Source: Chiloscyllium plagiosum (lineage: Eukaryota). From it: a stretch of DNA of 42,176 bases. The translations under genes and the position numbers were made by a program. Below are positions 3,441 to 42,176 of this stretch, one piece after another. The stretch lies in contig NC_057753.1 in assembly GCF_004010195.1 (NCBI RefSeq), forward strand, positions 2,676,881-2,719,056, in the 5' to 3' direction. Position 1 is the first letter of the stretch, and each line of letters begins with the position of its first letter. The notes beneath the pieces are model-generated. The model made no database searches. It had not been told where the DNA came from and saw only the letters and a list, made by a program, of their open reading frames with translations.

Positions 3441-3445
3441 TCGTC

Positions 3446-3680: not shown

Positions 3681-4229
3681 TTCTCATCAATATTTCATTC
3701 ATGCAAACGAATTTTCAAAAATATACGCTGTCACGTGACAGCACAACCCCCTTGCGGCAACAAACAACGGCAATTTTACTTTGATAGAATGCCTTGTTCA
3801 TCTTCAGGCTGTCCAAAGTGAGTCAAAGAAACAGTTGGAGGCACTGGACAATGAAAATCCTGAGTAACGCTGACAAGATTACGGTAATTATTATGAAGAT
3901 TTGTGCTCCAGAATTGTCTCACTCTTCGCCAAGTTATTGTTTAAGCACAACACAGACATATCCACGATAATTTGGCAATTTACCCAGATATGCCCAGCGC
4001 TCTAAAAGCAGGCCAAATAACATTTGACCAATTACCATCCCATAGTCAGTCTGTTGTGTCACCATAGTATTAGAAGACCGTAGAGGCTGCTGTCTCATGA
4101 GAGAGATAAGAGACTGGTAGTGATTTAACATGAAGGCCACCAGAACTCACGCAAGCGAGGAAGTTGAGAAGAACAGCACTTCATATTAACCTCAAACTGG
4201 AGATGGGAATTGAACCCGTGCTGTTGGCA

Positions 4230-6650: not shown

Positions 6651-6800
6651 AGTAAAAGGTAAAAGCCAGGTTCTAGATTAGAGTGGTGCTGGAAATGCAG
6701 AGCAATTCAGGCAGCATCCGAGGAGCAGTAAAATCGACGTTTCGGGCAAAAGCCCTTCATCCGGAATACAGACAGAGTGCCTGAAGGGTGGAGAGATAAT
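6651..6800 (-). mobile_element. Short non-autonomous element of the hammerhead-bearing fold-back family (one arm), inserted in the Gypsy integrase
   Basis: gagtggtgctggaaa..caggcagcatccgaggagcag.aaaatcgacgtttcgggcaaaagcccttcatc is homologous to the arms at 26886, 28705 and 40379. Confidence 0.75.
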
Positions 6801-11660: not shown

Positions 11661-12432
11661 TTCTGTTGATCTGTTGGCCAAGCTAGTAGGTTTGTTGGCA
11701 GCTGTTTCGTCCCCTTCCTAAGTGACATCATCAGTGCAGTTCACTCTCAAATTATGTGATTCTGTTTGACCTGTTTCCGGTTGGTGCCGGTTCTGGTATT
11801 TTCCATTGCAGTGATCTGTATATGGGGTCCAGGGAGATGTGTTTGTTGATGGATGAGTACCATGCTTCCAGGAATGCCATTGCTTTTCTTTGTTTAAATT
11901 ATTCTAGTATTGTTGCGTTCTCTCAGTCAAGCTCTTGGTTCGTTTTGGCCGCTTGTATGAATACCAGGGAGACTTTGTCGTGTCGCTTAGTTGCTAATTG
12001 GTGCTCATGGATGCGTTTCACTAGCTGTCTGCATCTTTGTCTTACATAGTGCTTAGTCACTGTGTGGTATTTTGTAAAGTACGTATGTCCCGCACATAGT
12101 GGGAATCCGTACAGGGACAGGCTAAACAAAGAACAGCATACGAATTCTTGGAAGCATGGTACTCATCTTTGGACTGCATCAACGAATACATTGAGCTCGA
12201 CCCTACAGACAAACCTCTGCAATGGAAAAAAAAACAAAACTGACGCCAACCAGCAACAGCACAACCAGAATAGCATAAAACAGCAAAGGCGCGTTTCACA
12301 GTTGGAAACACAGTACTGATTATGTCACCTGGACAGGGGAGGAAACTTCTGTCAACACAGCCACCAGCTCGGCGAAAAGACCAACAACGAATTCAATCAG
12401 CTCCTGAGCTACATAATTTCACAAACACTTGA
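11661..12432. mobile_element. Old Penelope-like element with inverted (tail-out) arms
   Basis: The minus strand reads TKHYVRQRCRQLVKRIHEHQLATKRHDKVSLV (GIY-YIG region); the plus arm is 12100-12430. It is homologous to the element at 22200-23285 and absent from the paralogous site at ~39100-39150. Confidence 0.82.
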
Positions 12433-12894: not shown

Positions 12895-13120
12895 GTAACG
12901 AAAACAAAAAAAGGTGAAAATTGCCGGATGGTCCAGAAACATCTGCGAAGAGAGTAGTAAATGTAACGTTTACACTTCACAGTCTGTTCTTTGGAAATAA
13001 GACAATTTGGAACTTGCAACGCTGAACTTCCAACTCCAACACTACCTTTGTTACTGTTCCACCGATGCTGTCAGAGTTGCTGCCTTTCTCCAACATTTTC
13101 TGATTTCACTTTAGATTTAT
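12895..13120. mobile_element. Strongly decayed fold-back short element, possibly an older relative of the hammerhead family
   Basis: Imperfect inverted arms gaaaattgccgga..cagaaacatctg and gatgctgtcagagttgctgcctttctccaacattttc. Confidence 0.4.
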
Positions 13121-13621: not shown

Positions 13622-13913
13622 GCAGTGCAGCCTCACAGCACCAGGATCCCAGGTTCAATTCCCGCCTCAGGTGACTGTCTGTGTGGAGTATGCACATTCT
13701 CCCTGTGTCTCCCTGGGTTTCCTCCCAGTGCTCAGGTTTCCTCCCACAGTCCAAAAATGTGCAGGTCAGGTGAATTGGCCATGCTAAATTGCCCATTGTG
13801 TTATGTGTATTAGTCAGAGGGAAATGGGTCTGGATGAGTTGCTCTTCGGAGGGTCGGTGTGGACTGGTCGGGCTGAAGGGCCTGTTGCCACACTGTAGGG
13901 AATCTAATCTAAT
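13622..13913 (+). mobile_element. HE1/V-SINE-type SINE with replaced 5' end
   Basis: B box ggttcaattccc, V-domain core, and tail gggcctgttgccacactgtagggaatctaatctaat. Confidence 0.88.
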
Positions 13914-14369: not shown

Positions 14370-15110
14370 AAACCAAGGTTTCACTGAAATCAGGAGATGA
14401 GTGACACTGGCGGAGCTCAAACTGGGTGTCACTGTCCAGCTCACTGTTCAGCAGGTGCTGCTTTACAGCACTGTTGACTAAACATTCCATTGCTGACAAT
14501 GAATGGAGTTGGCTCAGTAAGCTGAATTGTTGGTTGACAGAACAGTGTGATGCCAACAGCACGGGTTCAATTCCCATCTCCAGTTTGAGGTTAATATGAA
14601 GTGCTGTTCTTCTCAACTTCCTCGCTTGCGTGAGTTCTGGTGGCCCTCATGTTAAATCACTACCAGTCTCTTATCTCTCTCATGAGACAGCAGCCTCTAC
14701 GGTCTTCTAATACTATGGTGACAAAACAGACTGACTATGGGATGGTACACTGATGGGATGGTAATTGGCCAAATGTTATTTGTCTTGCTTTTAGTGCGCT
14801 GGGCATATCTGGGTAAATTGCCAAATTACCGTGGACATGCCTGTGTTGTGCTTAAACAATAACTTGGCGAAGAGTGAGACGATTCTGGAGCACAAATCTT
14901 CATAATGATTACCGTAATCTTGTCAGCGTTACTCAGGATTTTCATTGTCCAGTGCCTCCAACTGTTTCTTTGACTCACTTTGGGCAGCCTGAAGATGAAC
15001 AAGGCATTCTATCAAAGTAAAATTGCCGTTGTTTGTTGCCGCAAGGGGCTTGTGCTGTCACGTGACAGCGTATTTTTTTGAAAATCCGTTTGCATGAATG
15101 AAATATTGAT
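14370..15110 (-). mobile_element. Old LINE RT fragment interrupted by a SINE (copies at 3700-4055 + and 41770-42176 +)
   Basis: MKICAPE..LFAKL, NYHPI and MECLVNSAVKQHLLNSELDSDTQFELRQCHS match the N-terminal RT region of CR1-group LINEs. Confidence 0.7.
14509..14727 (+). mobile_element. tRNA-derived SINE of a second family (mirror at 4055-4229 -; fragment at ~34695-34750)
   Basis: A box tggctcagt and B box gggttcaattccc. It is absent from the paralogous LINE site at ~42105. Confidence 0.7.
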
Positions 15111-18100
15111 GAGAAGCTAATCACACTTAAAATTCTGCTGTGAAAGTCGATCATTCAGACAATCGAGTCCAAAACAAACCACTGAACAGCATCCCACCCA
15201 GACACAACCACAATCGTTTCCCTGCATTTCCCATGGCCAATCCACCTTGCGTGCACATACTTGGGCTGTGGGAGGAAAACCAGAGGACCGCAAGGTAACC
15301 ACGCTGACACGGAAATAATGTGCAAAGTCGACACAGACAGTCGCCCAAGGGACGATTCCATAGGAGTGTAAGACGTAGAAGCAGAAATTACACCATTCAG
15401 TCCATCGTGTCTACTCGACCATTCGATTAAGATTGATTGGATTTTTAAACCCATTTTCATGTTTTTTTCACTTACCTTCGATGCCTTTCGCAATCAAGAT
15501 CATATCTATCCCTGTTTAGTTTATGCTCCAGGAGTTTGGCTCCACAGCGTTCTGTGGCAATGAATTTTATAGATTTACCACTCCCACACTGAAGAAGATT
15601 CGCCTTATCTGCATTCTTAAGGGTCTTACTTTTAATCTAATGGAGTGCCCTTGGGTCCTCCTCTCTCCTACCAATGGAACCCTCCTCCCACGGACCAGTC
15701 TGTCCAGGCCAGTCAGTATTCTGCAAGTATCAATTAGACCCCTTCTGGACTCCGTCGAGTACACTCCCTGACTCCACGAACATTCCTTATATGTTAAGCC
15801 TTCCATTCGTGTGATACTCTTTGTGAACATCTACTGGGCGCTCAGAGTCAGTACATCCTTCCTGAGGTCTGGCGCCACAATTGCTCACAATGCTCTCAAT
15901 GTTGTATGATCAGAATCTACATGAGGTCTGATTCCGAACCAATGCTCCTGGCTACGTTAAGGAACAGTGCCAAAAAGGTAGCCACGGTGCCATAAGTCAC
16001 TTCAGACTGCTAAGCCTGTTCCTGCTGCATAATCGGTTGTTTATCCGCATCGATGCGCTTGCGGAGGCGATGGCATAATGCTGGTAATGCTGCACTATTA
16101 GTTCAAGGGTGAGGTCTCGTGTTCGAATATGCCATGGCAGATAATGGAAATTAAATTCAATATAATACAGAAATTAAGTGTCTCAAGATGACAGCGAATC
16201 GTTACTTAAATCCAAGTAACGTTTTCAGGTTGGACAGGTTGAGGCAGTGCAGCCTCACAACACCAGGATCCCAGGTTCGATTCCAGCCTCGGGTGACTGT
16301 CTGTGTGGGCTCATTAATGTCCATTACAGAAGGAAGCTGCCATCCTAACTTGGTTTGGTTTCTATGTAGTTATTGGTATTTGTAAATCTTTTGATCTCTA
16401 AATCAAACATACTCAACCACTGAGGTAGATAACATATGCAGTACCAATACTTTGACATAAGACCTTTTGGTTATTTTCAACTGTTGTCTCCATGAACGAC
16501 ACTCAAATATTATGATACTACCCATACAATTGTGAGATATATTTTTGAGCGGCAAACAGGAAAAGCAAACTTTATGGAAAATGGCTGATGATTGAGTGCT
16601 CAACTGGACTTGGAATAAAATGTTTATGCAATTGGAATCCGAAAATGGCAAGAGAGCAAACAAAATCATAGAAACTTAAAACATTTTCTCCAAGGATCAA
16701 ACAGACAGAGAAAATTCGATTGTGTTTCCACATGAATGGTTTCAGATTAAAAATTGTTTAAATATATTTGCATTTATCCTTTTAAAAAGTGCTGATAATG
16801 ATTGAATAATCATTTTCTTCTGACTGCTTCCAGAAGCCTAAAGACTGAAATTTAAAAATTTGATAAGAATACAGCAGAAAATAATTTCACAAATTTGAAA
16901 CAGGAAATTGCAGTGATATGGTGTTTGATACTATTGTGTAATGGCGGTGAAGTACGGCAGATGATATTTTGGTATTCATAATGGATACAATGATGTGGCC
17001 GTATCTGTGTTGGACTGGGGTGGACAAAATTAAAAAGAACATAGCAGCAGGTTATCATCAAACTGTTGGACTAGAACAACTTCATCATGGAAGGGCAGAA
17101 CACAAGTGCAGGGATGGCTTTTGGCTTTTGCATCGGGCTTGAGTGAGACGACAGGATATTTTGGAAATGGCGCAAATGGAACGAATGTTTGCCAGAATGA
17201 ATCCTGTGATGATAGGACTGTCACAGAAAGAGAGATTGGATCAGTTAGAGCTGAAGATGTTGCAGCTAAGAAAATTAAGTGGGAATCTCAGAAAAAATTA
17301 TGAATATCTAGCAGGAGTAGACAGGGTTAACATGGAAAGGATGTTCTCGATGACCAGGGAGTCAAGAAACAAGGAAGCCTGCAAGAGTCGAATAAAGTGT
17401 TCCTGCTTCAAATTACTTTGTTTCTCTGGAGAGAACAGAGTTGGGGCTGCATCGCTCTTGCACTGTGGTCACATGTCCTGAATAATATTCAGAGGCAGAA
17501 ATTTGCAGAATTTGCGATGGAAGTTTCATTTATCACCGCAGGTAACTGTGCAAATCAAAGCTTTAGCATTATCTCAATATCCAGACAGTTACTGTCTCTA
17601 TCAAGAAATGTTATTGGGTCTCAGTATATATCGCGTTAGAAATATCACAAAGGTAAATATTTCATTCAACAATGCATTAACACCACCTGAGCAACAGCTG
17701 CGCAGATCTGCTCATTACAAGGACTTTAATAAAACTGAATGAACTAACGAAATCCCCGGAGCATGGAATGAGACATAAATATAACAATTTTACAGTGAAA
17801 TTCTGAACGAGTACACAGGATCAGAAAGAAATGCACGACGCACCAAAAGGTTTGCTGTTTGCCATTTACTATCCCATCATTGGAGTAATCGGAGTTCCAG
17901 GTAAGTTGCTGTACCTTGTTAGCAACTGCATGAACAATGGGGACGCGGCAGTGATAGATATATTGCATTCGAATTGTTTTTTTCCACTTTTCAGTTACTC
18001 TTTCCCGGATTTAATATCTTCTCATTTCCCTGTCACTAGGATACTCGATTTCGTTGAACGGTGATAATTGTTTTTTTATCAACTGTGCGTTACTTTGCGA

Positions 18101-18802
18101 TTGCAACCATATGATCTCTTCCACTTCTATCCTTTCCAAAAAATTTCGGCATTATCAGCATCACGCAATCGGTATCTTCTCCACGTTATCGTGTTTATTT
18201 CAAATTCTAAACCATAAGGCTTCTTCATTTTCTCCCAAAAAATGATGTTTGGCATTATTCTGTCTCTGGCAACACATGCAATTTCGATATTCTAATTAGA
18301 TGATGCCTCCCGGTTAGTGCTTTCACCTTACAAGGTAAAGGCAGTTGTCATGTGCAACTGGCCCTGTTCCTGCAGTGAATGCACATCATGTTATCATGTC
18401 GTCAATTGTATTCTATTCTGCTATTGACTGTGTTATCGTGGATGAATTAAAGAAAACCTTATCGCTGTGTAAATTAGTTCCGTCGTCACACTGAAATTCA
18501 CTTATTGTTATCAATGAGCAAATTACGTCCTGTTCTGTTATTCACTTCAGATGTGGATGCGTTTTCAAATTGTTCAGTGTGTAATTGTAGATTTGTTGTT
18601 GTATTGACAACTACAGAGAAGAAACACGATGAATTAATAATTGAGACATATTAACAATAGAATAATATTGTTATAGAAACCGAGATAATGACGAAATCTT
18701 CTTTATCAGTCTCAGTGGATATGTTTGATCCTATTTCCGTTGTCACGTTGTCCTGAGTGGGAATTTGATTCCAAACGTTCCCACCCGAGGTAAGCACATT
18801 AT
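14551..18802 (+). repeat. Partner arm of the 4.2 kb inverted duplication (upstream region, exon 1 and 5' half of the intron of gene A)
   Basis: Direct reverse-complement match to 1..4229. Confidence 0.97.
17831..17900 (+). CDS. Exon 1 of intact GPR139/GPR142-like class A GPCR (gene A); CDS = join(17831..17900,19804..20714), 326 aa
   Basis: ATG at 17831 encodes MHDAPKGLLFAIYYPIIGVIGVP plus 1 nt, followed by a consensus donor CAG|GTAAGT at 17901. The phase-1 junction with exon 2 restores the TM1 motif GVP-A-N. Confidence 0.9.
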
Positions 18803-19803
18803 TCCTGCAACAAAGAGCTGAAATGACGTCTGCATAAACATTGTTATCATTGCATCTTTATGGATCACTAATATGTGTCATTTATTTCGTTCTCAGCCTC
18901 TACAGAACTCAGTCATTCAGCATGGTTTGCATTCACCACATTCGCTGTTGCTGAGGGTTCTTTAATAACTGGTTTCCTTTATTTTCCTTTTCTCTTCATC
19001 ACACAGAAATGCCCAGACAACATCGTCATCATATTCTTCAGACTGAGCAAAACCGTACACATTGTAGGAACTCTCATCGCCATGTTGCATGGATTCTTGC
19101 TTTAAATGTCCACACAACAATGAAGCCAATTGTTGATCCACACAGTGTAGCAGGTGCATTGGGCGACATTTTAAAAGAGGTTTCCACTGGTTGCACTTCA
19201 CCGTCTGCAGTTATAGTCAGTCCACTCGATACCAACAAATGCCCATTTATACTCGGTGTTGGGGCTCAAATTTACAACTGAACTCTACCTAACATGTTTT
19301 TTTTTCAAAGTCGAAGATAAAAGTATTGCCATTGTACATTCATCTTGCTCTGAATATTTTTGAGCATCCTCACTGCTGACATTAACATCAACGAATCATT
19401 TTGAAATAGTTTCTTGAATTCAGTCATTTTGGATGTGCAGTGTGACACATTAAATGTCCTTGCTAATATTGATACTTATCCTCAGTTGCTCTATCTTTAG
19501 TTATTTCAACATTTCCCAAACTTTTCTGTACGGTTCCTAAGTCAGCTCTGTTTTTTTTTTAATCTTGGAAGATATTAAGTTAATTTTCCTTTCTGTTGAC
19601 ATTACTTGGTGTACTTTCTCATCTGGCAGGCATAATGAATTGAATAAATACTTTTGGACAGCATTCTGAATAATTCACATTCAAGTCTTGCATCATTAAA
19701 CTCTTAAATTTCCGAAGATTTCATGAATGAAGAATGAAATATTTTGTGATTAAAATCTGCAAAATTCATCTTCTTCCTCTATTCCTCTTTCTGTCTATTA
19801 CAG
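17901..19803 (+). other. Single phase-1 intron of GPCR gene A (1903 bp)
   Basis: GTAAGT...polypyrimidine-TTACAG boundaries; colinear with the paralogous intron at 29422-31282. Confidence 0.88.
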
Positions 19804-20714
19804 CTAACTTAGCAGTTATTGTGATCCTCTCACGAAGCAGATGTGGTATCTCTGGATGCATCGTTTATTACCTGGTGGCAATGGCAGTGTCAGATCTACT
19901 GGTCATCCTGACAGCTATCATATTAAACCGCGTTGCTGGGATATACTTTCCGTTCAGTTTTCTCTCAATCACGCCAGTGTGCAGTTTGCGTTCTGCATTC
20001 AATTATGGAGTTATTGATAGCTCTACCTGGTTAACAGTCGCTTTCACCATTGATCGTTTTTTAGCCATTTGTTGTCAGGCGCTCAAAATAACATATTGCA
20101 CCAGGAGGATAGCAACATACGTTGTTGGAATTGTGGCCACATTAAGTTGCATAAAAAATGCTTTTGTGTATTTTATACATGAGCCGAGGTACGTGGTAAA
20201 AAGTATACCCTGGTTCTGTAACATAAAAGACACATATTTCACTTCAATTGCATGGACTACATACGACTGGGCTCGTTCAATTTTATCCATTTGCCTCCCA
20301 TTCATTCTGATTTTGCTGCTCAATGGTCTGACTGTCAGATACATTCTCGCGGCTAATAGAGCTCGCCGGAGACTGCAGAACCAGAACATTGGAAAAAATC
20401 AGAGTGATGCAGAGCTGGAGAAGCGGAGAAAGTCAATTGTTTTGCTCTTTGCCATTTCAGGCAGTTTCATTCTGCTCAATGCATTGTGCTTTATAATAAT
20501 CCTGTATGTCCGCGTTACCAATCTTATTTATGCCTCCGGTTCCGACTTTAATAATCTTCTTTTTGTCCTCAATGAAAGTGCAATCATGCTTCAGTTTTTG
20601 AGTTCCTGCATTAACCCATTTATTTATGCTGGAACTCAAAACAAATTCAGAGCTGAGTTAAAGAATGTGGTACAATATCCTTGGAGACTTTTTCTGAAAA
20701 AGTTGAACATTTGA
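19804..20714 (+). CDS. Exon 2 of intact GPR139/GPR142-like 7TM receptor (gene A)
   Basis: A polypyrimidine tract and TTACAG acceptor end at 19803, and the frame is open to TGA at 20714. Motifs: ANL (TM1), YYLVAMAVSDLL (TM2), C...WLTVAFTIDRFLAIC (TM3, DRF), LPFILILLLN (TM5), RRKSIVLLFAISGSF (TM6), SCINPFIY..Q.KFR (TM7/helix 8). Confidence 0.93.
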
Positions 20715-22199
20715 AGGTCAGCAGGAGGGAGGGAATGCAATGGTATTGCCAATGAATTAGCAATCCAGAGTTTCAGACTGATACTTAGAACGTACATTGT
20801 GAAACGATTCAATGAAGCAGGTCATTGTCAATTAAATTCAAACCGATAAATCTGGAATATAATGCTGGTCTCAATAACAATGACTTCCAACCTCTCATAC
20901 AGAGCAAAGTTCATTCATGGAGGATCTCCGGGAATAGAAAGTGATCCCAATTCCTTTGAAATGTGGTTCACTACGAACTGTTCTCTGAAATATTCTCGAA
21001 AATAATTCAATTCAAGGGCTATTGGGGACGAGGGATTGTTATGATGCTGGGGTCTTACCTCTATGTTAACTAAAACCAAATGCCCAGAAAAGCTCAACTC
21101 ATAATCTGCAAAATAAGTGTGAGTGACAGAGATCGCCTAATTTCGACTATTTGAAGAAAAATAACAATTTAGTTTCCAAACAGAACACTAAACAAAACTA
21201 TTAACAAACTGAACATTCTTTCCCCTAACTGAACACAATCTTATTAACAAGCTGTTCCAGTAGCACGCATATTAAAGTGTGACGTTGAGATGGTTCCAAT
21301 AAGGCAATAGAGACTTACAGATTAGCTCGGAAGGATTTGAAGAGAGAGTTAAGAAGAGCAAGCATTGAACATGAGCACATCTTTCGCAGTTAGAATACAG
21401 AAAATCCCTAAAACCTTCTATGGTGTGTGAGGAACAAAAGGATGACTAGGGTAGGAATAGGGCCAGTCAAAGAGAGAAGTGGAAGGTTGCGTGTGGACCT
21501 TGTGGAGATCTGAGAGGTGCTAAACGAATATTTCTTATCTGTTGTCACTCAAGAAAAAGCGAATACTGTAGAGGAGAAGGCTGTGATACTGGATATTAAA
21601 CTAGTACTGGATATTAAACTAGTCTAGAGTATCAATTCTAGAAAGTGTGAAAGTAGCTAAGTCGCCCAGGCTGGATGGGATCCAAGGATTATCTTTGGGA
21701 AGCTAGGGAGGAGACGGTGGAGCCTTTGGCCTTGATCTTTGAGTCGTCATTGTCTCTAGGTTTCATACCAGAAGATTGGAGGATTATAAATGTTGTGCCC
21801 TTGTTCGAGAAGGGCAGTAGAGATGACTCAGGTAATTACAGACCAGTGAGCTGTACGTCTGTTGTAGCAAAACTTTTAGAAAGGATTATAAGAGGTAGGA
21901 TTTATAATCATCCAGCAAGCAACAATTTGATTGGAGATAATCAACATGGTTTCGTCAAGGGCAAGTCGTTTCTCACAAACCTCATTGCGTTTATTGAGAA
22001 AGCGATCAAGCATGTGGATGAGGGTAGGGCAGTTGACATGGACTTAGTAAAGCCTTTAATAAGGTTCCACATGGTCGGCTTTTGGAGAAAATGTGGAGTC
22101 ATGGGCCTGAGGGTGATTTAGCAGTTTGGATTAGAAACTGTTTTTTTTGTAAGAAGGCAGCGAGTGGTGGTTGATGGAAAATATTTAGCTTGGAGTCCG

Positions 22200-23285
22200 A
22201 TTGTTATGGTTCTGTTCGCCGAGCTGAGAATTTGTGTTGCAGACGTTTCGTCCCCTGTCTAGGTGACATCCTCAGTGCTTGGGAGCCTCCTGTGAAGCGC
22301 TTCTGTGATGTTTCCTCCGGCATTTATAGTGGTTTGTATCTGCCGCTTCCAGTTGTCAGTTCCAGCTGTCCGCTGCAGTGGCCGATATATTGGGTCCAGG
22401 TCGATTTGCTTATTGATTGAATCTATGGATGAATGCCAGCCCTTTAGGAATTCCCTGGCTGTTCTTTGTTTGGCTAGTCCTATAATAGTAGTGTTGTCCC
22501 AGTCGAATTCATGTTGCTTGTCATCTGTATGTGTGGCTGCTAAGGAAAGCTGGTCGTATCGTTTCGTGGCTGGTTGGTGTTCATGAATGCAGATCGTTAG
22601 CTGTCTTCCTTAGCAAACACCTACCAAAAGAGGGAGTTTGATCCCACCCCACGCTCACCAATAGGATAAACAACACACTGAGGAACCTACAAAAAAAAAC
22701 GGACAGATAACCAGGTTCGACCTACAAAGAATGAACCCTGAAAGCAACAATACCCCCAGATTCTATGGACTACCTAAAAAGCAAAACCAATGTAGTGTAC
22801 AAAATCCCATGCAAGGACCGCACAAAACACTGCATAGGACAAACAGGAAGACAGCTAACGATCCGCATCGATGAACACCAACTAGCCACGAAACGAAACG
22901 ACCAGCTATCCTTAGTAGCCACACACTCAGATGACAAGCAACATGAATTCGACTGGGACAACACTACTTTTATAGGAATGGCCAAACAGGGAACAGCCAG
23001 GGAATTCCTAGAGGGATGGCATTCATCCACAGATTCAACCAATAAGCACATCGACCTGGACCCAATATATCGGCCACTGCAGCGGACAGCTGGAACTGAC
23101 AACCAAAAGCAGCAGATACAAATCACTATAAATGCCGGAGGAAACATCACAGAAGCGCTTCACAGGAGGCTCCCAAGCACTGAGAATGTCACCTAGACAG
23201 GGGATGAAACGTCTGCAACACAAATTCCCAGCTCGGCGAACAGAACCACAACAACGAGCACCCGAGCTACAACTCTTCTCACAAA
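22200..23285 (+). mobile_element. Penelope-like element (RT-deleted, GIY-YIG endonuclease remnant, inverted 5' copy) inserted in CR1
   Basis: TSD cttggagtccg (22189-22199 and 23286-23296); PRFYGLPK RT motif fused to NVVYKIPC..CIGQTGRQL..RIDEH; 410-bp inverted arms at 22201-22610 and 22845-23254. Confidence 0.93.
22239..22278 (-). ncRNA. Minimal type I hammerhead ribozyme motif in the Penelope terminal repeat
   Basis: The minus strand reads GCA-CUGAGGA-U-GUCACCU-AGAC-AGGGGAC-GAAAC-GUC-UGC: intact core, helix II, 3-bp helix I, and a loopless palindromic helix III. Confidence 0.75.
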
Positions 23286-25857
23286 CTTGGAGTCCGGTTA
23301 CTTGTGGTGTACCACAAGGATCTGTTTTGTGTCAGCTGCTGTTTGGCATTTTTTATAAATGACTTGGACGCAGGCATAGGTGGATGGGTTAGTAAGTTTG
23401 TTGTTGACATTAAAGTTCGTAGAGTGGTGGACAGTGTGGAAGAATGTTGCAGGTTGCATGGGGTCTTCGATAAGCTGCAGGCTTAGGCTGAGACGTAGCA
23501 AATGACATTCAATGCAGATACCTGTGAGCTAATTCAGTTTGGGAAGAATAACAGGAAGGCAGAATACTTGGTCAATGGAAAGATTCTTGGTATTATGGAT
23601 GTGCAGAGGGATCTTGGTGTCCATGTAAATAGACCACTGAAAGTTGCCACCCAGGTTGATAGTGATGTTAAGAAGGCCTTGGGTGTCTTAGGTTTTTTTG
23701 GGAGGTTGATTGGATTCCGGAGCCGTGACGTCATGCTGCATCTGTACAAAATGCTAGTGCGGCCTCACTTGGAATATAGTGCGCAATTCTGGTCGTCCAA
23801 ATTACGGGAAGGATGTGGAAGCATTAGAAAAGGTGCAGAGGAGATTTATCAGGATGATATTTAGTCTGAAGGGAAGGTCTTATGAGGGAAGGCTGAAGAT
23901 CTGAGGTCTGTTCTCATTGTGGAGAAGTCAAAGAGGGGATTTAAAAGAGACACAAAAGATGATCAGAAGATTAGGTACGGTGGACAGAGAGAGTGTTTGT
24001 TTTCTAGGATGACACCGGCATTTAAGAGGGGGCATAGCTACAAATTGAAGGATGAAAGATTTAAGACAGATGTCAGAAGCAGGTTTTTTACTCAGAGGGT
24101 GTTAAGGGCGTGCATCGCCCTGACTGTCAATGTAGTTAACTGAGTCCTTCGATAAGTGTATGGATTGTAATGGGATAGCGTAGGGGATGGACGTACGTTC
24201 GTTCACAGGTCGGCGCAACATTGGGAACCGTCAGGCCTGTTCTGCACTATATTGCTCTATGTTCTATGTTCTAAACATTGTATTAACTTAATCTCAAGAC
24301 CACGCAATCTCTATCTGCCCACTGTCTGCAATCTTCGGCTTGCTTATTTCCCTCAGTTTTATTTCTTCCTTTTTACTGCAAGTATTTTTTAAATGAAAAG
24401 GTACCATTTTCAGAGAATGAGTTTTCTAATTTTTTTGACAGCAAGATGCTACGTGGGCAGTTACCTCTCTAAGTCTATGGCATGTGCTCTGCCGATTGGT
24501 GGCAGTTGCATTGACCAGTTTCAAAATACCAGTGTATTTTCCCACCTTATTGCTGGGATGTTGTCAAAACAATAAATTGAAACTCGATTTTTTTTAATTA
24601 TCCGAGTGGTAATTAAAAATCATTGGTCAAATTTGAATTGTTGTCAAAACTGCAAACAAAAACCCAGGTATTCCTTCAACAAATAATTTTTACATGAATC
24701 TCTCTTGAAACAGACTCTCTCCCAATCGTTCTGATCGAGCAGCTGAGCCTGCAGTTTAAGTTTATTTCAATATTCAGAATACACTCTCTATTTCAAAGTG
24801 AACAGATTATTTCGGCATCTTAACACTTCCATCCTTGAGAAAAAATGAGTTATCATAACGAAAAGTTGGATTCATTTAATTTTGTCCAATTCCTAATACC
24901 ATTTCAATGAAATGCATATGCCATTAATCTAATTAATTCTGCACACATAAAGAACATTGGAATCGGTACAGTCCTATCTTATCTTAACACTTTCTTTTAA
25001 AACCGTGATAACATATCTGCTGATACATTCTTACGACCTGCAACATGCACAATTTCTAAATTTAAAGTCTGTAACATAATCTTCAATGCAATTGTCTCAC
25101 AGTTTTGTCTTTACATCTCTCCAAAATGTGACAGAATTTGTGCTAAATGTACACAACAGTCTCGAACACGTTGTTCATAACATAAACATTAAAATGTTGT
25201 CACGCCTGTACGAAACTCAATAACTCTTCTTCGGTAGTGGAGCATTTTCTCTGGTGGATATTTCGTTTCTTTGAAAAGTAGCCAATTGGATGCTCAGTTT
25301 CACTATCCTCTTCCTGCATCAAAACACCTCCATTCCCGCTGTGGTTAACAACGATTACAACTTTAAAGGATTTCAAAATATTTGATGGGCTAAAACTGGT
25401 CCGATGGATAATGTTGCTTTTAATTTCTCAATAGCCTCTTGCAATTGTTATATCCACTGAAATTTCGTGTTCTTCTTTGGTAAATGCTCCAGTGGTGCCA
25501 TCACACTGCTGAAGTTTGATACAAATTTTCGGTAGAATCTATTCAGTCCCAAATCTTGGCCCATCCTCTTTCTTTGAGGATGGATGTGGAATGTTCTTTA
25601 ATGGCCTTCATCTTCACGTTCCGTGAGGTCATCCTTCCATGTCCGGATGTATGGCCCAAGAACATCACCTCTGTCTTAGTGAATTCTGTATGCTTTGTAT
25701 TTTTTTTGCCAATTTCATTTATCAAAATCGTTCGAAGAGCTCTGCCAACTGTACTATGTGATCTTTCCATAAATGGTTGAAGATCACCACATAATCAAGA
25801 TATACAGCACAATTATTTAATCTTGATGCAACTCTGTTCGTGATCTTTGGAATGTTG

Positions 25858-25985
25858 CTGGTGCATTCTTGATTCCAAAGGACACCATTTTGAATTGCAA
25901 CTCCACGGTACCCTAATTTACCTGGTGCATTCTTGATTCCAAAGGACACCATTTTGAATTGCAACTCCTCAGTACCCTGATTTAC
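25858..25985. repeat. 64-bp tandem duplication (2 copies, 3 mismatches)
   Basis: ctggtgcattcttgattccaaaggacaccattttgaattgcaactcc... occurs at 25858 and 25922. Confidence 0.95.
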
Positions 25986-26885
25986 CTTTGACTTTTCCAC
26001 CGCAAGGGGCGTCACTCCCAACTCGGATCCCGTCACCTCGTTACCGGGAACAAACTGGCAATATCTCCCATTGTTACTTCCACAGTCTTGATTGCCTCTG
26101 CAACCTGATGTTACACAAAGAAGTGTAAAATTTCTGTCCATCTAGTCTATAAATTATCACCTCCCAGGTAACATTTCGGAATGAGTATAACTACGTTCGT
26201 CTATTATTATTAGAGAGAGATTAAGATTTTCTTTCCCTTCTCCACCTGTTCTTCCTGAATAAACGTTACCCACAGAGATGAGGTCTTTGTAGAGATTGGG
26301 CACTAACTCAATACATAGCCTCTGTCGAGGCTGTGTACTCTCCTGCAGCTCCTCGACCTTTCTTGATGTTTCCTTTACACCTTGCACTTATCCCACTGGT
26401 GTCGTCTCTTTTCACACAGTAGCTTCCTTCAACAACCAGCATTGTAATTTAATTTGTCCTGCCTCACAGAAGTCGAAACACTTGAAATATTTCATCTCCT
26501 TTGAATACCCTGAGGCTTCTTTCTTCACCTGTGACAAATTGTCGCCAGTGTTCTCCAGTTTTTGCTTTTTAGTGATGGATGTTTCCTGAGAGAATTTCTG
26601 AAAGTCATGGGATGAAATTCCTGTCAGAAGATAAATTTCACTTTATGCAACAATGCATATTCATCTGCCTTCTCAGCCATTTTTCTCATTTCTTGACCTA
26701 TCCGTTCATTCACATGAAGTTTTTGCCATCTCTGGAAGTGGGTTATTAAACTCCTCCAGCAGAATACTGTCTCGTAGGCCCGCACACATATATCAAAATG
26801 ACTATGTCCAATTCGTTCAAATTCATCATAAGTCTGACGTGGTCCCTTCTTCATGCTTCTGAACTGCTGTCTATACGCTTTTGGT

Positions 26886-27103
26886 GCTGAAAATGTGTTG
26901 CTGGAAAAGCGCAGCAGTTCAGGCAGCATCCAGGGAACAGGAGAATCGACGTTTTGGGCATAAGCCCTTCTTCATGAATCCTGAAGAAGGGATTATGCCC
27001 GAAACGTCGATTCTCCTGTTCCCTGGATGCTGCCTGACCTGCTCGCTTTTCCAGCAACACATTTTCAGCTCTGATCTCCAGCATCTGCAAACCTCACTTT
27101 CTC
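26886..27103 (+). mobile_element. 218-bp fold-back non-autonomous element with 15-bp TSD, inserted in Gypsy gag
   Basis: TSD ctatacgcttttggt (26871-26885 and 27104-27118); near-perfect hairpin 26886-27069 plus a 34-nt unpaired tail. Confidence 0.92.
26976..27013 (+). ncRNA. Minimal hammerhead ribozyme motif in the fold-back element
   Basis: GAAUC-CUGAAGA-A-GGGA-UUAU-GCCC-GAAAC-GUC-GAUUC, with a 5-bp helix I (GAAUC/GAUUC). Predicted cleavage is after C27008. Confidence 0.72.
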
Positions 27104-28704
27104 CTATACGCTTTTGGTACCGATTTTCAGATACTTAAAATAGACTTTCTTGGCATCTGCGTAACCTCTTGACCCGTCACAGCGCTGCAAATACCTCAGT
27201 AGTTCTGCCTATCAGCTGGGTCTGAACTAGCATTAGCCACAATTTCTCTTGCCTCTCTTTATCTCCAGGCAGTATTTCAAATAAAATATATAAGGTTTCC
27301 ACATCATCCTCATCAAAATGTGCTATTATTTTGAAATATCAATAACTTCTCCCTTCATCTTCATTCTGTTAACTTGAATTTCCTGACTAATTAGCAATTT
27401 ATGAAGTTCAAGTTCTATCTCTCTTTCTTATCTCTCTCTCTCTCCATGTCACCGCCACCTCCCCCCGCTCTTTTACTCAGCCAAGTACCTTCTCTCCCTT
27501 TCTTTATCTTTTAACGCCAACTTTGTGGTCCAATTGCAAGTTAAGTCTTTCTAACTCTACTGCACTGCCCTGTTTCTCCGAAATACCTAAGTGCTTGAAA
27601 AACTCTACCAAAATTCCAGCTTTCCTTTTGTCCAGAGATAAACAGATTTCTAACCGATTTGACATCACTACATTTCTCTCCTCTGTCAGTCTTTCAAAAC
27701 TTCCTTGGCAGATTTGGGAAGCATCCTCAAACCTGAGAATCGCTTTCCCAATGATAACATTACTAAAGAACCATATCCCTCACTTTTAATTTAACCAACC
27801 ACAAGTAACGAAATTAAACAAATTTTCTTATGTAAGTTTTATTTAACGACCTAAGGCACTAATAAACAAGTGCTTAAATCTGTTGGGATCAGTTGTACCC
27901 CAATTCATTTCAAATCTGTCCAAATCCCTGACTGGATTTTTCTAAACCTGTCCACATCTGTCCAACTCTCGGATGACGAGCTACCAAACCTTTACAACCC
28001 GAAAGTGAACCTTTTCTGCTAACTAAACCAGACACCGAGAGAAGCTTGCCTCGATTCGCAATCTCTTAAAGTTGGAATGACAAAGAGCTCCTAAATTCCA
28101 CTATTTAAAAAAAAACATTTTTCTTCCTCTAAACGTGAACATTAAACAAAAATAACTATTCACAAATCTAAGACCCCCTTTCTGTTATTTGCTTACACTC
28201 TGAAACCAACTCTGCAATCATAATCTGTTCCAGTAAGATGCTTATTAAAATTACATCAAAATAATTTCAAAACCACATAGTCTCTGTCTTCTTCTGTGTC
28301 TTCACTCTTCTGGCTGTTGATCTCCATGAGGCGTCTTCTTTTATTTTATTGTGAGTATGAAGAGGTACTTTTCATAGAGCGCATTCTCAAATTTCTTTGA
28401 GATTGTCTCCAACGAGTTTCTCCTTTCTCGGCAATTGTTCGTTCTGAGCATTTTTCAAAATGTCCACGTCATTTTCTCCCCAAGTATCGATCGACTGATT
28501 GGTTCGATGTTGGGAAAACAATAATTTCAAACTCAGTTCTGTTTTAATATGCTGGGACATCATTTAAACTGATTGGTTAAATTCGAATTGTTGTCAAGAT
28601 ATCAACCAAAAATCGGGTATCCATTCCACAGGTAAATTTTACATATCTTCAGTGTTCCAGTACACTCTGGGACTGCCATCTAGTCATATACGCAGGTGCT
28701 TGTA

Positions 28705-28870
28705 CGTTTAGAGTAGTGCTGGAAGAGCACAGCCGGTCAGGCAGCATCCGAGGAGCAGGATAAAAAGCGTCCTGCTTCTCGGATGCGACTTGACCTGCTG
28801 TTCTTTTTTTTCAGCACCATTTTAATCTTGACTCTAATCTCCAGCATCTGCAGTCCTCACTTTCGCCAAA
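28705..28870 (+). mobile_element. Fold-back element with deleted centre, inserted in the Gypsy 5' LTR
   Basis: TSD gtgcttgta (28696-28704 and 28871-28879); arms gcatccgaggagcagga and tcctgcttctcggatgc; family tail ctccagcatctgcagtcctcacttt. Confidence 0.85.
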
Positions 28871-29351
28871 GTGCTTGTAAGCCGTCAGTTCAGAACAGAT
28901 TTCTCTGTCTCTTAAAAGTACAGTACTTGCTTTCAACTACATATCATGGTGGAGAGATACAATTGGATGTGGGGCCATATCGCGCTTCTACTGTGGTAAT
29001 ATGTACTGAATAATGGATCAGGACACAATTTTGAAGTATTTGGCATGAAAGGATAATTTTTCATCACCGGTAATGGTGTAACTCACTGCTTTGGCCTTTT
29101 CTCAATATCCACAAAGTTATTGTTTACATCAAGAAATATTAGTGTGAAGGCTTTGAATCACAGCGTATTTCACTTCAGAAATATCACGAAGGTAAATAAT
29201 TCATCCAACAAAACATAAACACAATCTGAACAACAGCTACACAGATCTGTTTTTTTGCAAGGACTTCAATAAAACTTAATAAACTAATGAGCTTTCGGGA
29301 ACCTGGAATGAGTCATTAAGATTCTTAACGAGCTCACAATAACTGAGAGGA

Positions 29352-32231
29352 ATGAATGAAGTAGTAAAAGCTGTGATGTTTGCCATTTACTGTCCCGTCA
29401 TTGCAGCAATCGGAGTTTCTGGTAAATTACCTAGACACTGACTACACAACTGATGGGTAATCAGCAGCGAATGAGATGTTTCAGTAGAACCACTTCTCCA
29501 CTTTTTAGGTACTCTCTCTCCGATTTAATGTCTTCTCATTTCCCCTCCATCACTGTACTGAATTTCATTTAACTGTGATAATTGTTTTTCTCCACACTTG
29601 CATTATTCAGTATTTCAAACTCTCCTACTTTTTTCATTTTTGACAAAACATGAGATTGCATGGAATTTCACCACGTTATTATGTTTATTTCAAAACCTTG
29701 AGTATAACGTTTCTTCACAAATCCCCTATAATTTGATGTTTAGCTTTATTGTGTCTCCCGACACATTTACAACTTCGTTGTTATAATTACATGATTCCTC
29801 GAGTTTCGTGATTACATCTTACCAGGTAAATGTAGTCCTCATATGCAATTGGCCCAGTTTCTGCAGTGGATTGGGATAATGTTATCATGAAGTTAATTCT
29901 GTTCTATTCTGCTATTGACCTTGTTCATGTGGGTGAATTAACGATGCCTTGTTGTGTAAATTAGTTCTGTCGTCACACTGAAATTCACACGTTATTTTCA
30001 TAATGTTATTCTGTTCTGTTCTTCGGGTGAATTGCCATATTGTTTACAGTGTGCAATTCTAGTTTTTTGTGATATTGAAAACTACAGAGAAGTGACACGA
30101 TGAATGATAATTGAGATTTGTTAATGGAAAAACATATATGACTGAATTTAATTATGAAAAATATTAAGGAGACAGTAGAAAACACCAAGATAATGACCAA
30201 GTCTTTTTATGCATCTGTCTGGAATATTTGATCACATTTCCATGGCTTCATTCTCTGAGACAGAACTTGAATCTCAGTGTTTGCAACTGAAGTAATAAAT
30301 TCCCACTGCAAGAAAATCATGAAATGTCTTCTGCATAAACATCGTTGTTGTGACATTTTTATGGATTACTGGTATGTGTCATTTTCTTTTGTTCTCAGCC
30401 TCTGCAACACTGGGTCCTTCAGCATGTTTATCCTTCACAACATTCGCTGCAGATGATGACTCTTTCATGGCTGATTTCCTTTCTTTTCATGTTTTCCCCT
30501 ACACAGAAATGCTCAGACACCATCTTCACTATGTTCTCCACACTGAGTAACATTCCATCGATTGCACTAACTCTCAAAGGCATAGTGCACAGATCCTTGC
30601 TTCAAATGTCCACTCACCAATGAAATTATTTGATAATCCATCCAATACTGCTCGAGTATTGAGCTACAATATGGCTTCTTACTGTCTGCGCCTTGCTTTC
30701 TTTTTTTGCAGTCCATCCAATCGATATCTACAAAACCAAATTTGTTACTTGGTGTTTGGTCTCACATTTATAACTGAGATCGACCGAATATGTCCCTTTC
30801 AAATGGAAGATAAAACTGTTGTGATTTTGCATTCATCTTGATCTGAAAAAAACGTTGCACATCTTACTTGCTGTCCAACAATGAATAGTTTTATAATAGC
30901 TTATTGAATGCAGTCAATTTGAACATACAGTGTAACATACTCAGTGCCCATGTTGCTTTAATTGCTTATTGTCGGTTGCTTTACATTTTTTGTATATTTT
31001 CGACAACTATCTGTAATGCTACCGAGTCAGTTGTGTCTTAAATGTTAGAAGACACGAAAATAGTTTGCATTATATTGACATTGACTTCGTGTACTTTGTC
31101 ATCTGGAAGCCATAATAAATTGGATGTATACCATTGACTGGTTTTAAGTGTAATTTACATTTGAGTTTTGCGTCATGAAACTTTCAAACTTACAATTCCA
31201 TTGAAGAGAAGGGTGAATTCTTTTCAGAGTAAAATCTGCAACATTCATTTTCTTTTTTTCACTCTCTTTGTGCCTATTACAGGTAGCTAAACAGTTATTA
31301 TGATCGTGACTCGATGCAAGTGCGGTATCTCCAGATGTATTGATTATTACCTAGTGACAATGGCAGTATCAGAAATACAGGTCATAGTGACAGCTGTCAT
31401 ATTAAATCGCATTGCTGGAATTTATTTCCCATCGTTTTTTTTCTCTCAAACACACTAGCGTGCAGTGTGTGCTCTGCTTTCAATTACGGATTTATTGATA
31501 GCTTTGCTTGGTTAACAGACAGTTTCACAATTGATCAATTTGTATCCATTTCTTGTCTGACGTTCAAAATAACATTGCATCAGGAGGACGGCAATGCGCG
31601 TTGGAGGAATTGTGACCACATTAAGTTGCATACAAATATATTTGTATATTTTACATATGAAACGAACCAAGTAGTACAAAATATACATTGGTTCTGCAAA
31701 CTAAAAGATATATCTTTCACGTCACTTGCATGGGCTGCATATGATTGGATTTGTTCAATTTTAATCACTTGTCTCCCATTCATTATGATCTTACTGCTCA
31801 ACGCTCAGACCTGCCACATATGTTCTAGTGGCTAAGAGAGCCTGCACGAGACTGCAGACTCAGAGGATGGGAACGAATCCGCGCGATGCAGAGATGGAGA
31901 AGGGGAGGAAGTCAGTCGTTTGCCCTTTGCCTCTTCAGGCAATTTCAATCTGTTCAATGTATTGTACGTTATAACAATTGCACGCATTGGGAATCTTAGT
32001 TGTGCATCCGGTTCTGACTTTAATAATCTCTCTTTTGTGCTCAGTGAAAATGCATTTATGTTTCAGTTTTTGAGTTTCTGCATCAACACATTTATTTATG
32101 CTGGAACCTACGATAAATTCAGAGCTCAGTTAAATAATTTGGTAGAATATCCCTGGAAGCTTTTCTACAAAATTTCAAGATTTCAAAGTTGGAAAAAGGG
32201 AGAGAGCGAAGTTTTATTGTCAATACACTAA
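29352..32231 (+). pseudogene. GPR139-like pseudogene (gene B): exon 1 29352..29421, exon 2 from 31283
   Basis: Exon 1 encodes MNEVVKAVMFAIYCPVIAAIGVS followed by a GTAAAT donor; the acceptor TTACAG ends at 31282. Lesions: in-frame TAA at 31288-31290, frameshifts near 31440, 31575 and 31810, DRF changed to DQF, NPFIY changed to NTFIY. Fragments appear as ORFs 31467 and 31920. Confidence 0.9.
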
Positions 32232-33949
32232 TAAACCAGAGCATCAGACCAACAGTGTCAGCAAATCTTGTGAAATTCTTCAATGAAACATGCCGTTGAC
32301 ATTTAAATTCAAACTAATAAATCTGGAATATAATGCGAGTTGGAATAATAGTGACATCCAAGCTCTCATCCAGTCCCAGGTTCATTCACCGAGGGACTCT
32401 ACAGATGGAAGTCTGCAACGTTGACTTGATTCTGTCTACGTGAGACCCCAATTCATCTGAATTACGCTTGGCTACGAACTGTCCTCTGAAATAGTCTGGA
32501 ATACAATTCAGTTTAAGGGCCCCTGAGGTCAGGAAATGAGTCTTGCATTTGTAAGGAATGCCCATGGCAGGAAATGATTGTCGGAAAAAAAGGATACATT
32601 ATATTCCAACAGCTCCTTTTCTTAACCATGTGCCGCCTCGAGAAATGTATCCGAAAGACCAGTTAACCAATTGAAGCCTGACCAGCTGGGATTTGTGTTA
32701 AATTGATCTTCAATGTGTTCTAAAAATCTCAATTAATTAATTGTCAATTCTACAACCTTTCATTATGAGGGAGCCGTTGTCGTCAATTTGAAAAGAAAAT
32801 CCTTTCAAAAGGTATCAGGGTTCTTGTGGCGCGGGTTCAATTCCTGCCTGCTCCTGAGTTTTCCAGTAACATAATCATAGTGATAGATCTGCACCTCCAC
32901 CTCTAAAGGATCCAGTGCCACTTATGCCACAGTTGCACAGTAAGATTTCTAAAGAAATTGATGGGGAAATTACATTGACCAGGACTGCTTGTCTTCTGTC
33001 AGCAAAGTGCTATGTAACATATTTTGATTAAACTTTCTCATATTTAGCTTTATTGCCATTTAAGTTGCTACTACCCTGCCAAAACAAAGCATTACAGTGA
33101 GTGAAAATAATTTGTCAATTTAACACATCTGAAAATGAAATTATGCAAAATCAAACGGAGGGCCCACACCAGGAATCGTATTTATTAACCTAAATCTTTT
33201 GGCTTTATAAAATGCTAAGCTGTACATCCGATGATTAGGGATCCAAGGGGCGATGTTAGGTTTTTTTTTCTCACTAAATAGAGGCAAAAACTGTTAGATA
33301 AAGGTGAATGTGGGTTGTTTGAGAAGAGATACTCAACGTCCATCACTGCAACGATGGACGTTGCTGAGATAATAGGATTTGAACAACAATAGAACATTCC
33401 GCCATGTTTACGATCATGAGTGAAATGTGGCATGACTGCATATGCCTGTCCCGAGGCCATAACTCTTGCTTACAGCAAAAAATATCTCAGATTCAAAAGT
33501 AACGATAGATCTAACATTAACTACCTTTTGTGGAAAAGAGTTTCAAACATCTGTCGCCCTCTGTGCATTGAAGTGCTTCTGAGCATCTCTCCTGACTGAT
33601 TGGACAGAATTCTTAGACTATTTATTCCCCAGCTCCTGAATCTCCAAACAATGGAAATAGTTAATGTTTACCTTTGCTGTCTTTTTCCTGTTAATATATT
33701 TTCAACTTCCGTGAGATCACCCCTTGACTTCGAAATTCAAAAGAATTCATCTGGAGAGCCCGTGTTGTTTGTTGGAAGCTTGGTAATGTTGTTGGGCTTT
33801 CTTGTTCATAAATCTAAGTTTACCAAATAAGCTCGATGTAACATAGTTTTTACTCGCAGCATTTACTTTCAAATTGCATAAAATCTTTATTGGTGTCTCG
33901 TCGTTATTTGTATCCATTTTGTTGTCTATATGTGGATTGGTGTTGATTG

Positions 33950-40094: not shown

Positions 40095-42176
40095 CAGTCT
40101 CTGTTTTTGACACAGGCCTGCCATCCTAGGAATCATTCTGGCAAATAATCATTGCGTTCTCTCCTCAGTCAAAAGATTCACTGGTCTCACTCAGGCCCTA
40201 TTCAAAAACTGAAAGAAATCCCTGCTCTTGTATTCTACCCTTAAATTAATAAGTTCAAAATCACCCAACATACGGTTCTAGTTCAACAGTTTGACGATAA
40301 CCTGCTGTTGTGAGTTTTTAAATTTTGTCCCCCTAAGTCCAACACCGGCATCGCGACATCATTGTATCCATTATGTACTGAAAATGTGTTGCTGGAAAAG
40401 CAACAGGAAGGGCTCATGCCCGAAACGTCGATTCTCCTGCTCCTTGGATGCTGCCTGACCTGCTGCGCTTTTCCAGCAACACATTTTCAGCTCTGATCTC
40501 CAGCATCTGCAGTCCTCACTTTCCCCTATCCATTATGTACGCCAAGATGTAATCTGCATTCTTCACAGTCAATACACAGTAGTAACAAACGTCATAATAA
40601 CTTCCTTTCTGCTTCAAATTCGTGAAATTATTTTCTGCTGGATTATTTTCAAATTTCTAAACTTCAGTCTTTCGGCTTCGAGAAACAGTCAGAAGACAAC
40701 GATTATTCAATCATTAACAATACCATTTTAAGATAAATGCAAACTATATTAAAACAATTTTTAATCTGAAGCCATTCATTCAGAAGCACAACCGAATTTC
40801 CTCGGCAGTTTGATCCTCAGAAAATTTGGTTTAAGTTCCTATGATCATTGTTTTGTTGTCTTGCCAATTTCAGTTTCCAATTTCAGAAGCATTATATTCC
40901 AAATCCAGTTGAACATTCAAACATCAGCCATTTTCGATAAAGTTTACTGCTCCTGTTTATTGCCTGAAAATCTATCTCACAATTGCATGAGTAGTCTCCT
41001 ATTATTTGTGTGTAGTTCTTGGATGCAACAGTTTGATATCGCCAAAGGTCTTATGTCATGTCATTGCCAAAGCATATGCTATCTACATCTGTTGTTGTGC
41101 ATGTTTGAATTAGAGATCTACGGTTTTCCAGATAGCTACAAATACATAGAATTCAAACTAAGTTAGGATGCCAGCTTACTTCTGTAAAGAACATTAATGA
41201 GTCCGATGGTTTTCCCCCGACAATCGACAATTGATTCACGGTCATCTTGAGACTCTTAATTTCGGGTTTTTATTTAATTCAATTTCTGCCATCTCCCTTG
41301 GCAGGTTCCAACATGGGGTATTACCCTGGTTCTTATATTGCAGCGAGAACAGCATTATGCAATCGCCCCCGTTAGCGCATTGATGTGTATAAGCAGCTGA
41401 TCATTCGGCAGAAATAGGCTTGGCAGCCTGAATCGACTTGTGGAACGGTGGCTACTTTGTTTACACTACATTAGAGTAAAAGGAAGAAACTTAAGAACGG
41501 AGATAAGGATAAACTGTCTGTGCGCAGTTTGTACATTCTCCCTGCTTCAGCGGGGGTTTGCTCCAGGTCCTGCGCTTTTCTCCAACAGTCCAAGTATTTT
41601 AAGTTTAGGTGGACAGTCCATGGGGAATGCCGGGAAACGGTTGGGGTTGTGCCTGGTGAGATATTTTTCGTGGGATCTGTTTGGACTCGCCTGTCCGAAT
41701 GACATGTTTTCACAGCAGGATTTTAACTTTGATTTGTTTCTCAGCAATATTTCATTCATGCAAGCGAATTTTCAACAAGAGACTGTCACGTGACAGTTCA
41801 AGACGATTACGTAAGCAAACAATGTAAGATTTATTTTGATATAAACTCTTATTCACCTTCAGATTGTCCAAAATTCATGCAAAAGAAACAATTAGAGATA
41901 CTGTACACGGCAAAGCCTTTGGACTCTGTCAGCATTATGGTAATTGTAATGAAGGTCTGTGCTCCAGAATTTGTTGTACTCTTCGCCAAACTATTGTTTA
42001 AGCCACAATACTGTCATCTCCCGACAATTTGAGAAATCAACCAGATATGCCCAGTGCACAAAAATCAGGAGAAGTCCACCATGACCAATTACCGCCCATT
42101 CAGTCGACTCTCCATCGCCACGAATGGAATGTTTAATCAACAGTGCTAGAAAAGAGCTGTTAAGGTTTTATCTGCT
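40095..42176 (+). repeat. Diverged paralog of ~1565-4055 (inverted relative to the gene A upstream region 14450-17240)
   Basis: Colinear matches, for example 40600-41200 with 1890-2475, 41240-41460 with 2585-2815, and 41510-42105 with 3450-4050. Confidence 0.88.
40379..40526 (+). mobile_element. Fold-back element, partly deleted, with 14-bp TSD
   Basis: TSD tatccattatgtac (40365-40378 and 40527-40540). The empty paralogous site is at ~1809-1822. Confidence 0.9.

Follow-up and report, generated by a model that had tools for sequence, protein, structure and literature searches.

A near-perfect palindrome with a hammerhead ribozyme motif in each arm raises the question of whether the two motifs belong together, as parts of a distinct mobile family, or were brought face to face by the way in which a known retroelement inserts. 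Such a unit is present in the shark Chiloscyllium plagiosum, within a stretch of 42,176 nucleotides of contig NC_057753.1 that was analysed as a whole and is referred to here as the window. The first-pass annotation, made from the letters alone, had proposed a non-coding, ribozyme-bearing family mobilised by Penelope reverse transcriptase (RT). The analysis described below indicates that an endonuclease-bearing Penelope-like element (PLE) very probably gave rise to the unit through a truncated fold-back insertion.

Structure of the focal insertion

The focal unit measures 218 bp in total and has no remaining coding sequence (Table 1). Its first 184 nt (26886-27069) form a near-perfect hairpin with a minimum free energy of -167.4 kcal/mol (z = -25.7); none of 200 shuffled sequences folded as well, and comparison of the arms gave 5 mismatching columns out of 92. 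The hairpin recognised in the first-pass annotation was thereby confirmed, together with its 15-bp target site duplication (TSD), which is exact and is the sole exact flanking repeat of at least 6 bp near the ends of the unit. Between the hairpin and the right TSD copy lies a tail of 34 unpaired bases, on that side only, and the first one to three bases of the TSD (27104-27106) are the same as the 3' end of the PLE family itself. The outer end of the inverted arm coincides with the inner boundary of the tail, and the inverted arm of a sibling copy at 40379 begins at the identical point. The two arms share a single nucleotide, 26979, and the locus holds one head-to-head unit, with no tandem array. 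Both arms carry the same minority letter at 27023, where the family has T in 63-97%, which makes it likely that they derive from one donor. An assembly artefact was ruled out, as the arms differ, the TSD is exact and a contig from organism A (see below) spans the tail and the flank.

Table 1. Positions, within the window, of the parts of the focal unit and of related copies
Feature	Position	Strand	Remarks
TSD, left copy	26871..26885		exact 15-bp repeat
Inverted arm, tail-less PLE end	26886..26979	-	pairs with 26979-27069, 5 differences; ends 4 nt upstream of the hammerhead core
Mirror hammerhead, dead	26948..26975	-	C3>A and G12>A, from the arm differences
Junction	26976..26980	+	the 5-bp helix I takes its 5' strand from here; first three bases derived from the inverted arm
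Direct arm, PLE 3' end (part of the pLTR)	26979..27069	+	5'-truncated 2 nt upstream of C3
Minimal type I hammerhead	26981..27013	+	fits the min-HHR traits given in PMC4209133
Tail, 34 bp, one-sided	27070..27103	+	family end at 27104-27106
TSD, right copy	27104..27118		exact 15-bp repeat
Sibling insertion, focal subfamily	40365..40540	+	14-bp TSD, tail, inverted arm of about 24 bp
Older fold-back sibling	28696..28879	+	tail, 9-bp TSD, no hammerhead
Sister-subfamily copy	6683..6799	-	no tail, no fold-back; about 35 nt of native upstream sequence
Second-family PLE control	22189..23296	+	11-bp TSD and tail; hammerhead; coding remnant in the direct arm, which follows an inverted arm

The unit is flanked by a single-exon ORF for a rhodopsin-family GPCR (19731-20714, Pfam 7tm_1) and by the frame-broken paralogue of this ORF, located 11.5 kb downstream (about 31344-32231). 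The window also holds an inverted duplication of more than 4 kb (1-4229 and 14551-18802, 94-99% identical) and older direct duplications that are 70-80% identical (17496-20928 with 29024-32399, and 1569-3726 with 40098-41783); these duplications appear to make up a locally expanded gene cluster, and the young inverted pair borders a gap of 500 N and is possibly a misassembly. A dispersed repeat with a tRNA-like head, presumably a SINE, occurs at 3455-3564, 9943-10105, 13622-13783, 16244-16325 and 41513-41622, and a 64-bp tandem repeat of two copies (25858-25987) is located beside a 139-aa ORF on the minus strand.

The hammerhead motif

The right arm contains the full core claimed for it in the first-pass annotation, extending from C3 (26981) to C17 (27008) with an extra A at 26988 and a predicted cut after 27008; helix II occupies 26989-27000, the palindromic ACGU 27004-27007 and the 3' strand of the 5-bp helix I 27009-27013. 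Thus, the conserved core, the extra base after A9, the G10.1-C11.1 pair and the palindromic 15.2-16.2 are all present in this arm, whereas the left arm fails these features and, also as annotated, carries a mutated copy on the opposite strand, with the changes C3>A at 26975 and G12>A at 26955. A search with hammerhead descriptors had been recommended along with that annotation. A relaxed min-HHR descriptor, composed once the motif was already known, recovered the motif as one of two matches in the window (the other at 22275-22242), against 2 in 100 shuffles, that is, a chance expectation of 0.02 per window, and an Rfam search of the window returned two weak matches and no hammerhead family at E≤1.

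Helix II of the focal copy has only 3 bp, as the A at 26992 is private to it (the family has C in 91-97%) and 4 bp are normal; relative to the family, this copy is therefore damaged. Helix I reaches 5 bp by way of the junction, where the inverted arm supplies its first three bases, and is hence a junction product. With the upstream letters usual in the family, helix I would shrink to 2 bp and a single further pair beyond a U-U mismatch, and the variant T>A at 27011 (7, 0, 29 and 11% across the four runs described below) would extend it to 4 bp.

When the whole element was folded, both hammerhead helices had a probability of 0 and forcing them cost +43.5 kcal/mol, in contrast to helix probabilities of about 0.7 for the right arm by itself. 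In any read-through RNA the 92-bp hairpin would form, so that the hammerhead at this locus is most likely buried and the ribozyme inactive. Moreover, as the motifs occupy opposite strands, no single transcript can contain both in ribozyme form and a dimer in cis is precluded. Folding of a 38-nt motif dimer gave -13.5 kcal/mol for the designed active dimer, versus -20.6 kcal/mol for a non-ribozyme dimer and -14.6 kcal/mol for two monomers; these energies say nothing on cleavage activity and lend the active dimer no support.

Related copies in the window

The three fold-backs of the family in the window, a small sample, have three different centres and TSDs of 15, 14 and 9 bp. In the sibling at 40365-40540, the direct arm begins inside the core, with C3-A7 missing, and the inverted arm is about 24 bp long versus 92 bp at the focal unit; its empty site is kept in two paralogous segments of the window. 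The tail is repeated at 40492-40526 and, in the older sibling, at about 28830-28867. The sister-subfamily copy has native upstream sequence that differs from the CCTCAT type of the loose ends (see below), and its helix I has only two contiguous pairs. A decayed fragment of the focal family was also noticed at 13047-13108 (E 2.4e-05).

A second PLE family is represented 4 kb away from the focal unit by an insertion of the same layout (22189-23296), with arms of 434 bp. Its coding remnant is 85% identical to P0001, a protein bearing RT and HTH regions, and the ORF remnant is 76-88% identical to proteins from Chiloscyllium and Hemiscyllium. The ORF of this insertion is from the endonuclease region, and its end is overlapped by the hammerhead; on either side the insertion is bordered by an RT-like LINE fragment (ORFs at 21657 and 23499). 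A related PLE family has left an older fold-back in a worse state of decay at about 11664-12426. Its protein identity to P0001 is 59%, and the search for a TSD gave no convincing one.

The family in reads and contigs

Four runs out of 24 listed were mapped to 26972-27400, namely three DNA runs (organisms A, B and C) and one RNA run. The copy number of the family is very high, with 43,317, 30,316 and 42,538 contigs in the DNA runs of organisms A, B and C, respectively. The depth is more than 100-fold lower past 27106, and hundreds of dissimilar loose ends appear behind 27103-27106, which together fix the 3' end of the family at the tail. One contig of organism A covers both the tail and the flank; those of organisms B and C begin to match at 27104 and leave the tail unmatched, so the insertion site is apparently empty in these two. 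The flank diverges by 4.7% from organism B and 5.5% from organism C, and the two arms differ by 5.4%; as a rough inference, the insertion would be about the same age as the splits from both organisms.

At the other end, 463, 342, 366 and 423 loose ends were found before 26979 in the four runs, and in all four their last six letters are CCTCAT; further upstream their agreement is low, 0.36-0.51. The 423 of the RNA run, with an agreement of 0.51, go loose at 26979 rather than tracking the centre of the hairpin. A rough mixture estimate assigns one common upstream body to roughly one-third of the RNA reads and to 5-13% of the contigs that go loose at this point. As far as so rough an estimate allows, this low share suggests that many family copies stop only a few bases before the hammerhead core and are hence short, like both arms at the focal locus; part of the family extends upstream into a longer body. 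The motif of this upstream body is absent from the window.

The family variants listed lie at the free position N7 (16-37%), within loop II (with frequencies of up to 37%) and at C11.1 (4-14%), and none is in a core box; the list covers part of the variants, and the mapping favours similar copies. Opposite-strand joints, among those listed, lie at scattered positions with one or two contigs each, and head-to-tail joints are present too (27104 back to 26979).

The indexed runs listed as carrying the sequence included no RNA run. The raw RNA run that was mapped contained 2,621 family reads from both strands, 13 of them at 99% or more, and almost none on the unique flank. No pile-up of read starts or ends was observed on the family sequence in this run, a polyA single-cell library of which about 2% was read, and thus a poor test of ribozyme cleavage. 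Separately, 183 reads of the RNA run (X21) continue behind 27103 into one downstream sequence, with an agreement of 0.86 and a motif like a polyA signal; they probably stem from a single expressed transcript that carries a family copy close to its 3' end.

Fold-backs beyond the window

A scan with a general hammerhead-type motif found at least 120 metagenome loci, none of which resembles the focal family outside the motif; the same motif had no match in viral contigs, and a family-specific DNA motif had none in metagenome contigs or in genome contigs. Among the matches listed, an inverted copy lies upstream in 28 of the 110 loci with enough upstream DNA. After three duplicates were dropped, 25 distinct fold-back loci were left, with inter-arm gaps from 4 to 751 nt (at most 42 nt in 10 of the 25), and six of these have a 12-15 bp TSD beyond a tail of 30-53 nt. 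Three loci (L015, L018 and L034), which are unrelated animal DNA, are fold-back units of 240-267 bp in which the hammerheads stand back to back, the tails measure 44-53 nt and the TSDs 12-14 bp. The spread of the gaps and the existence of such small units place the focal mini fold-back at the short extreme of a continuum.

Two loci have this hammerhead type downstream of an ORF: in L020 it lies 86 nt downstream of one with a weak GIY-YIG match (E 0.0046, below the cut-off), and in L068 it lies 159 nt downstream of an HTH_animal-like ORF, for which the comparison with P0001 was not significant (E 0.10). The ORFs of the metagenome loci had no tblastn match in the window, and Pfam gave no match for the GIY-YIG-like ORF of the window or for three ORFs of the loci.

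Origin of the unit and alternatives

The favoured explanation, with a probability of about 0.8, is that the unit is a dead-on-arrival insertion made by the RT and GIY-YIG endonuclease of a high-copy PLE through a two-nick scheme. The PLE enzyme would nick both strands about 15 bp apart, as the observed TSD suggests, and each nick would prime a cDNA on PLE RNA. One cDNA, from an inner start site, would give the tail-less left arm, and the other, from a start about 34-37 nt further out, the right arm with its tail; both arms read as first-strand cDNA from the two TSD edges, one per start site. Both cDNAs would then have stopped where the arms are seen to end, 2-4 nt upstream of the core, and have been joined head to head over 1 nt. 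The two start sites and the extension of both strands are transferred by inference from work in vitro on an anole PLE. The hammerhead would be the ordinary pLTR motif of the parent PLE, passively carried along. Priming at two nicks on the RNA of one donor would be the simplest model, and resembles the twin priming of L1, which no publication found in the literature clearly applies to PLEs.

Several traits of endonuclease-bearing (EN+) PLE insertions are present, namely an inverted, 5'-truncated copy upstream, a tail of 30-40 bp at one end and a short TSD of variable length, with the hammerhead on the sense strand of the terminal repeat and upstream of the tail. This match to the architecture of published PLE insertions supports the two-nick PLE origin, as does the same order in the coding PLE remnant at 22189-23296. 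Differences among the fold-back centres could in part reflect later deletions in unstable palindromes. Against the two-nick PLE explanation, no RT/GIY-YIG ORF is tied to the focal family: in two sets of candidates, one of 3 and one of 14, none scored as a protein link, and a full protein scan for a parent ORF returned five matches, all to unrelated repeat proteins. In addition, Arkhipova et al. (2013, PMC3846280) favour self-priming on an antisense template.

A more far-reaching version of the same scheme is conceivable, although unlikely. The hammerhead would mark the 5' end of the copied RNA, a dimeric PLE enzyme would start at both nicks, yielding two short run-off cDNAs to be joined head to head, and the RNA of roughly 125 nt from hammerhead to tail would have turned into a non-autonomous element that depends on PLEs and has reached a very high copy number in sharks. 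If this is true, thousands of fold-back junctions would offer a natural read-out of the PLE integration mechanism.

Quite doubtful is the alternative that a short non-autonomous RNA of about 125 nt, from hammerhead to tail, is the template for PLE proteins acting in trans, with the fold-back arising anew at each insertion. It would account for the ends of both arms 2-4 nt upstream of C3, for the very high copy number, for the loose ends, whose nearest six letters are the same in every one of the four runs and which diverge further out (0.36-0.51), and for the common upstream body being limited to a minority of loose ends, so that many copies are short; pLTR sequences alone are also described as able to act in trans (PMC3846280). 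However, the pile of ends would arise equally from RT run-off at the 5' end of a normal PLE mRNA or from a stall at the structured motif, a longer body does exist, as the 423 loose RNA reads indicate, and there are no promoter boxes: simple patterns for Pol III A and B boxes matched neither strand, as the first-pass annotation had stated. On the same grounds, a tRNA-type SINE was ruled out for the focal unit.

It is highly improbable that the palindrome of 218 bp propagates as a unit and thus constitutes a discrete family with ribozymes of its own. Two copies with identical outer starts, the perfect 5-bp helix I of the focal copy and the similar units of 240-267 bp in other animals (L015, L018, L034) speak for it, but all three copies in the window differ in their centres, the hammerhead is missing from one of them, the junction is required for helix I, the motif is buried (+43.5 kcal/mol), opposite-strand motifs cannot be two ribozymes of one RNA and the 423 RNA reads go loose at 26979 without following the centre. 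At this locus, the reading is largely refuted. Of the earlier proposal, therefore, the Penelope origin, the minimal hammerhead and the retro-type insertion have stood, and the distinct non-coding family with meaningful back-to-back ribozymes has not, given the varying centres, the junction-made helix I, the buried motif and the longer body in part of the family. Finally, a MITE or fold-back DNA transposon with a hammerhead motif by chance, already disfavoured in the first-pass annotation, is hardly credible, as its long inverted repeat, small size and high copy number are set against TSDs of 15, 14 and 9 bp in place of the fixed length of a DNA transposon, a one-sided tail that separates the inverted repeat from the TSD, varying centres, head-to-tail joints (27104 back to 26979) and a motif expected only 0.02 times per window.

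Taken by itself, the focal locus is of little weight, being one among very many PLE stubs. The population of stubs could matter for the mechanism of tandem and inverted PLE insertion and for the role of the hammerhead in vivo, which is still open; according to PMC11167929, the motif is dispensable for insertion in vitro.

Comparison with known systems

No publication on this shark family was found in a search of the literature, and sharks are not named in the portion of PMC4209133 consulted. General background on the topic is provided by PMC8969392, PMC5753468 and PMC6765202. Typical PLE traits described by Craig et al. (2021, PMC8557442) include the inverted 5'-truncated copy and the one-sided tail of 30-40 bp, and the mechanism of tandem and inverted insertion is termed undefined there. 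Arkhipova et al. (PMC3846280) described PLE insertions with an inverted pLTR, a 31-bp tail and TSDs of 8-10 bp, and proposed the self-priming mentioned above for inversions. For an anole PLE protein, Frangieh et al. (2024, PMC11167929) demonstrated cutting and extension of both strands, with reverse transcription from two internal sites whose distance equals the tail, and hammerhead mutants left insertion in vitro unaffected. The focal unit is like the EN+ PLE insertions in these three reports in its inverted copy, one-end tail, variable TSD and sense-strand pLTR hammerhead, and differs from them in its extreme truncation, to 218 bp without coding sequence.

The min-HHRs of metazoan PLEs have low activity and thousands of solo copies, as reported by Cervera and De la Peña (2014, PMC4209133), who also described opposite-strand hammerhead pairs at distances of 100-700 bp and found most motifs to be solitary ones left by truncated PLEs. 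The focal motif is similar to them in its full core, the extra base between 9 and 10.1, G10.1-C11.1, the palindromic 15.2-16.2 and the lack of a stem III. In contrast, helix II has 4 bp in the focal family (3 bp in the focal copy) and 7-8 bp in Schistosoma, the native helix I of the main focal subfamily has 2 bp and a mismatch, and the two focal motifs are only 5 bp apart. The inverted arm, the one-sided tail and the opposite-strand hammerhead pairs have all been published for ordinary PLE insertions, and they lend no support to a separate family for the focal unit.

The last comparison is with the non-LTR retrozymes of Li, Clavereau and Pollet (bioRxiv 10.64898/2026.07.22.740005), head-to-tail tandems derived from PLE pLTRs with a hammerhead in each unit, which are reported as present in the single chondrichthyan sampled. 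Like them, the focal unit is non-coding, has a type I hammerhead and originates from a PLE pLTR; unlike these head-to-tail tandems, it is arranged head to head and contains no same-strand dimer.
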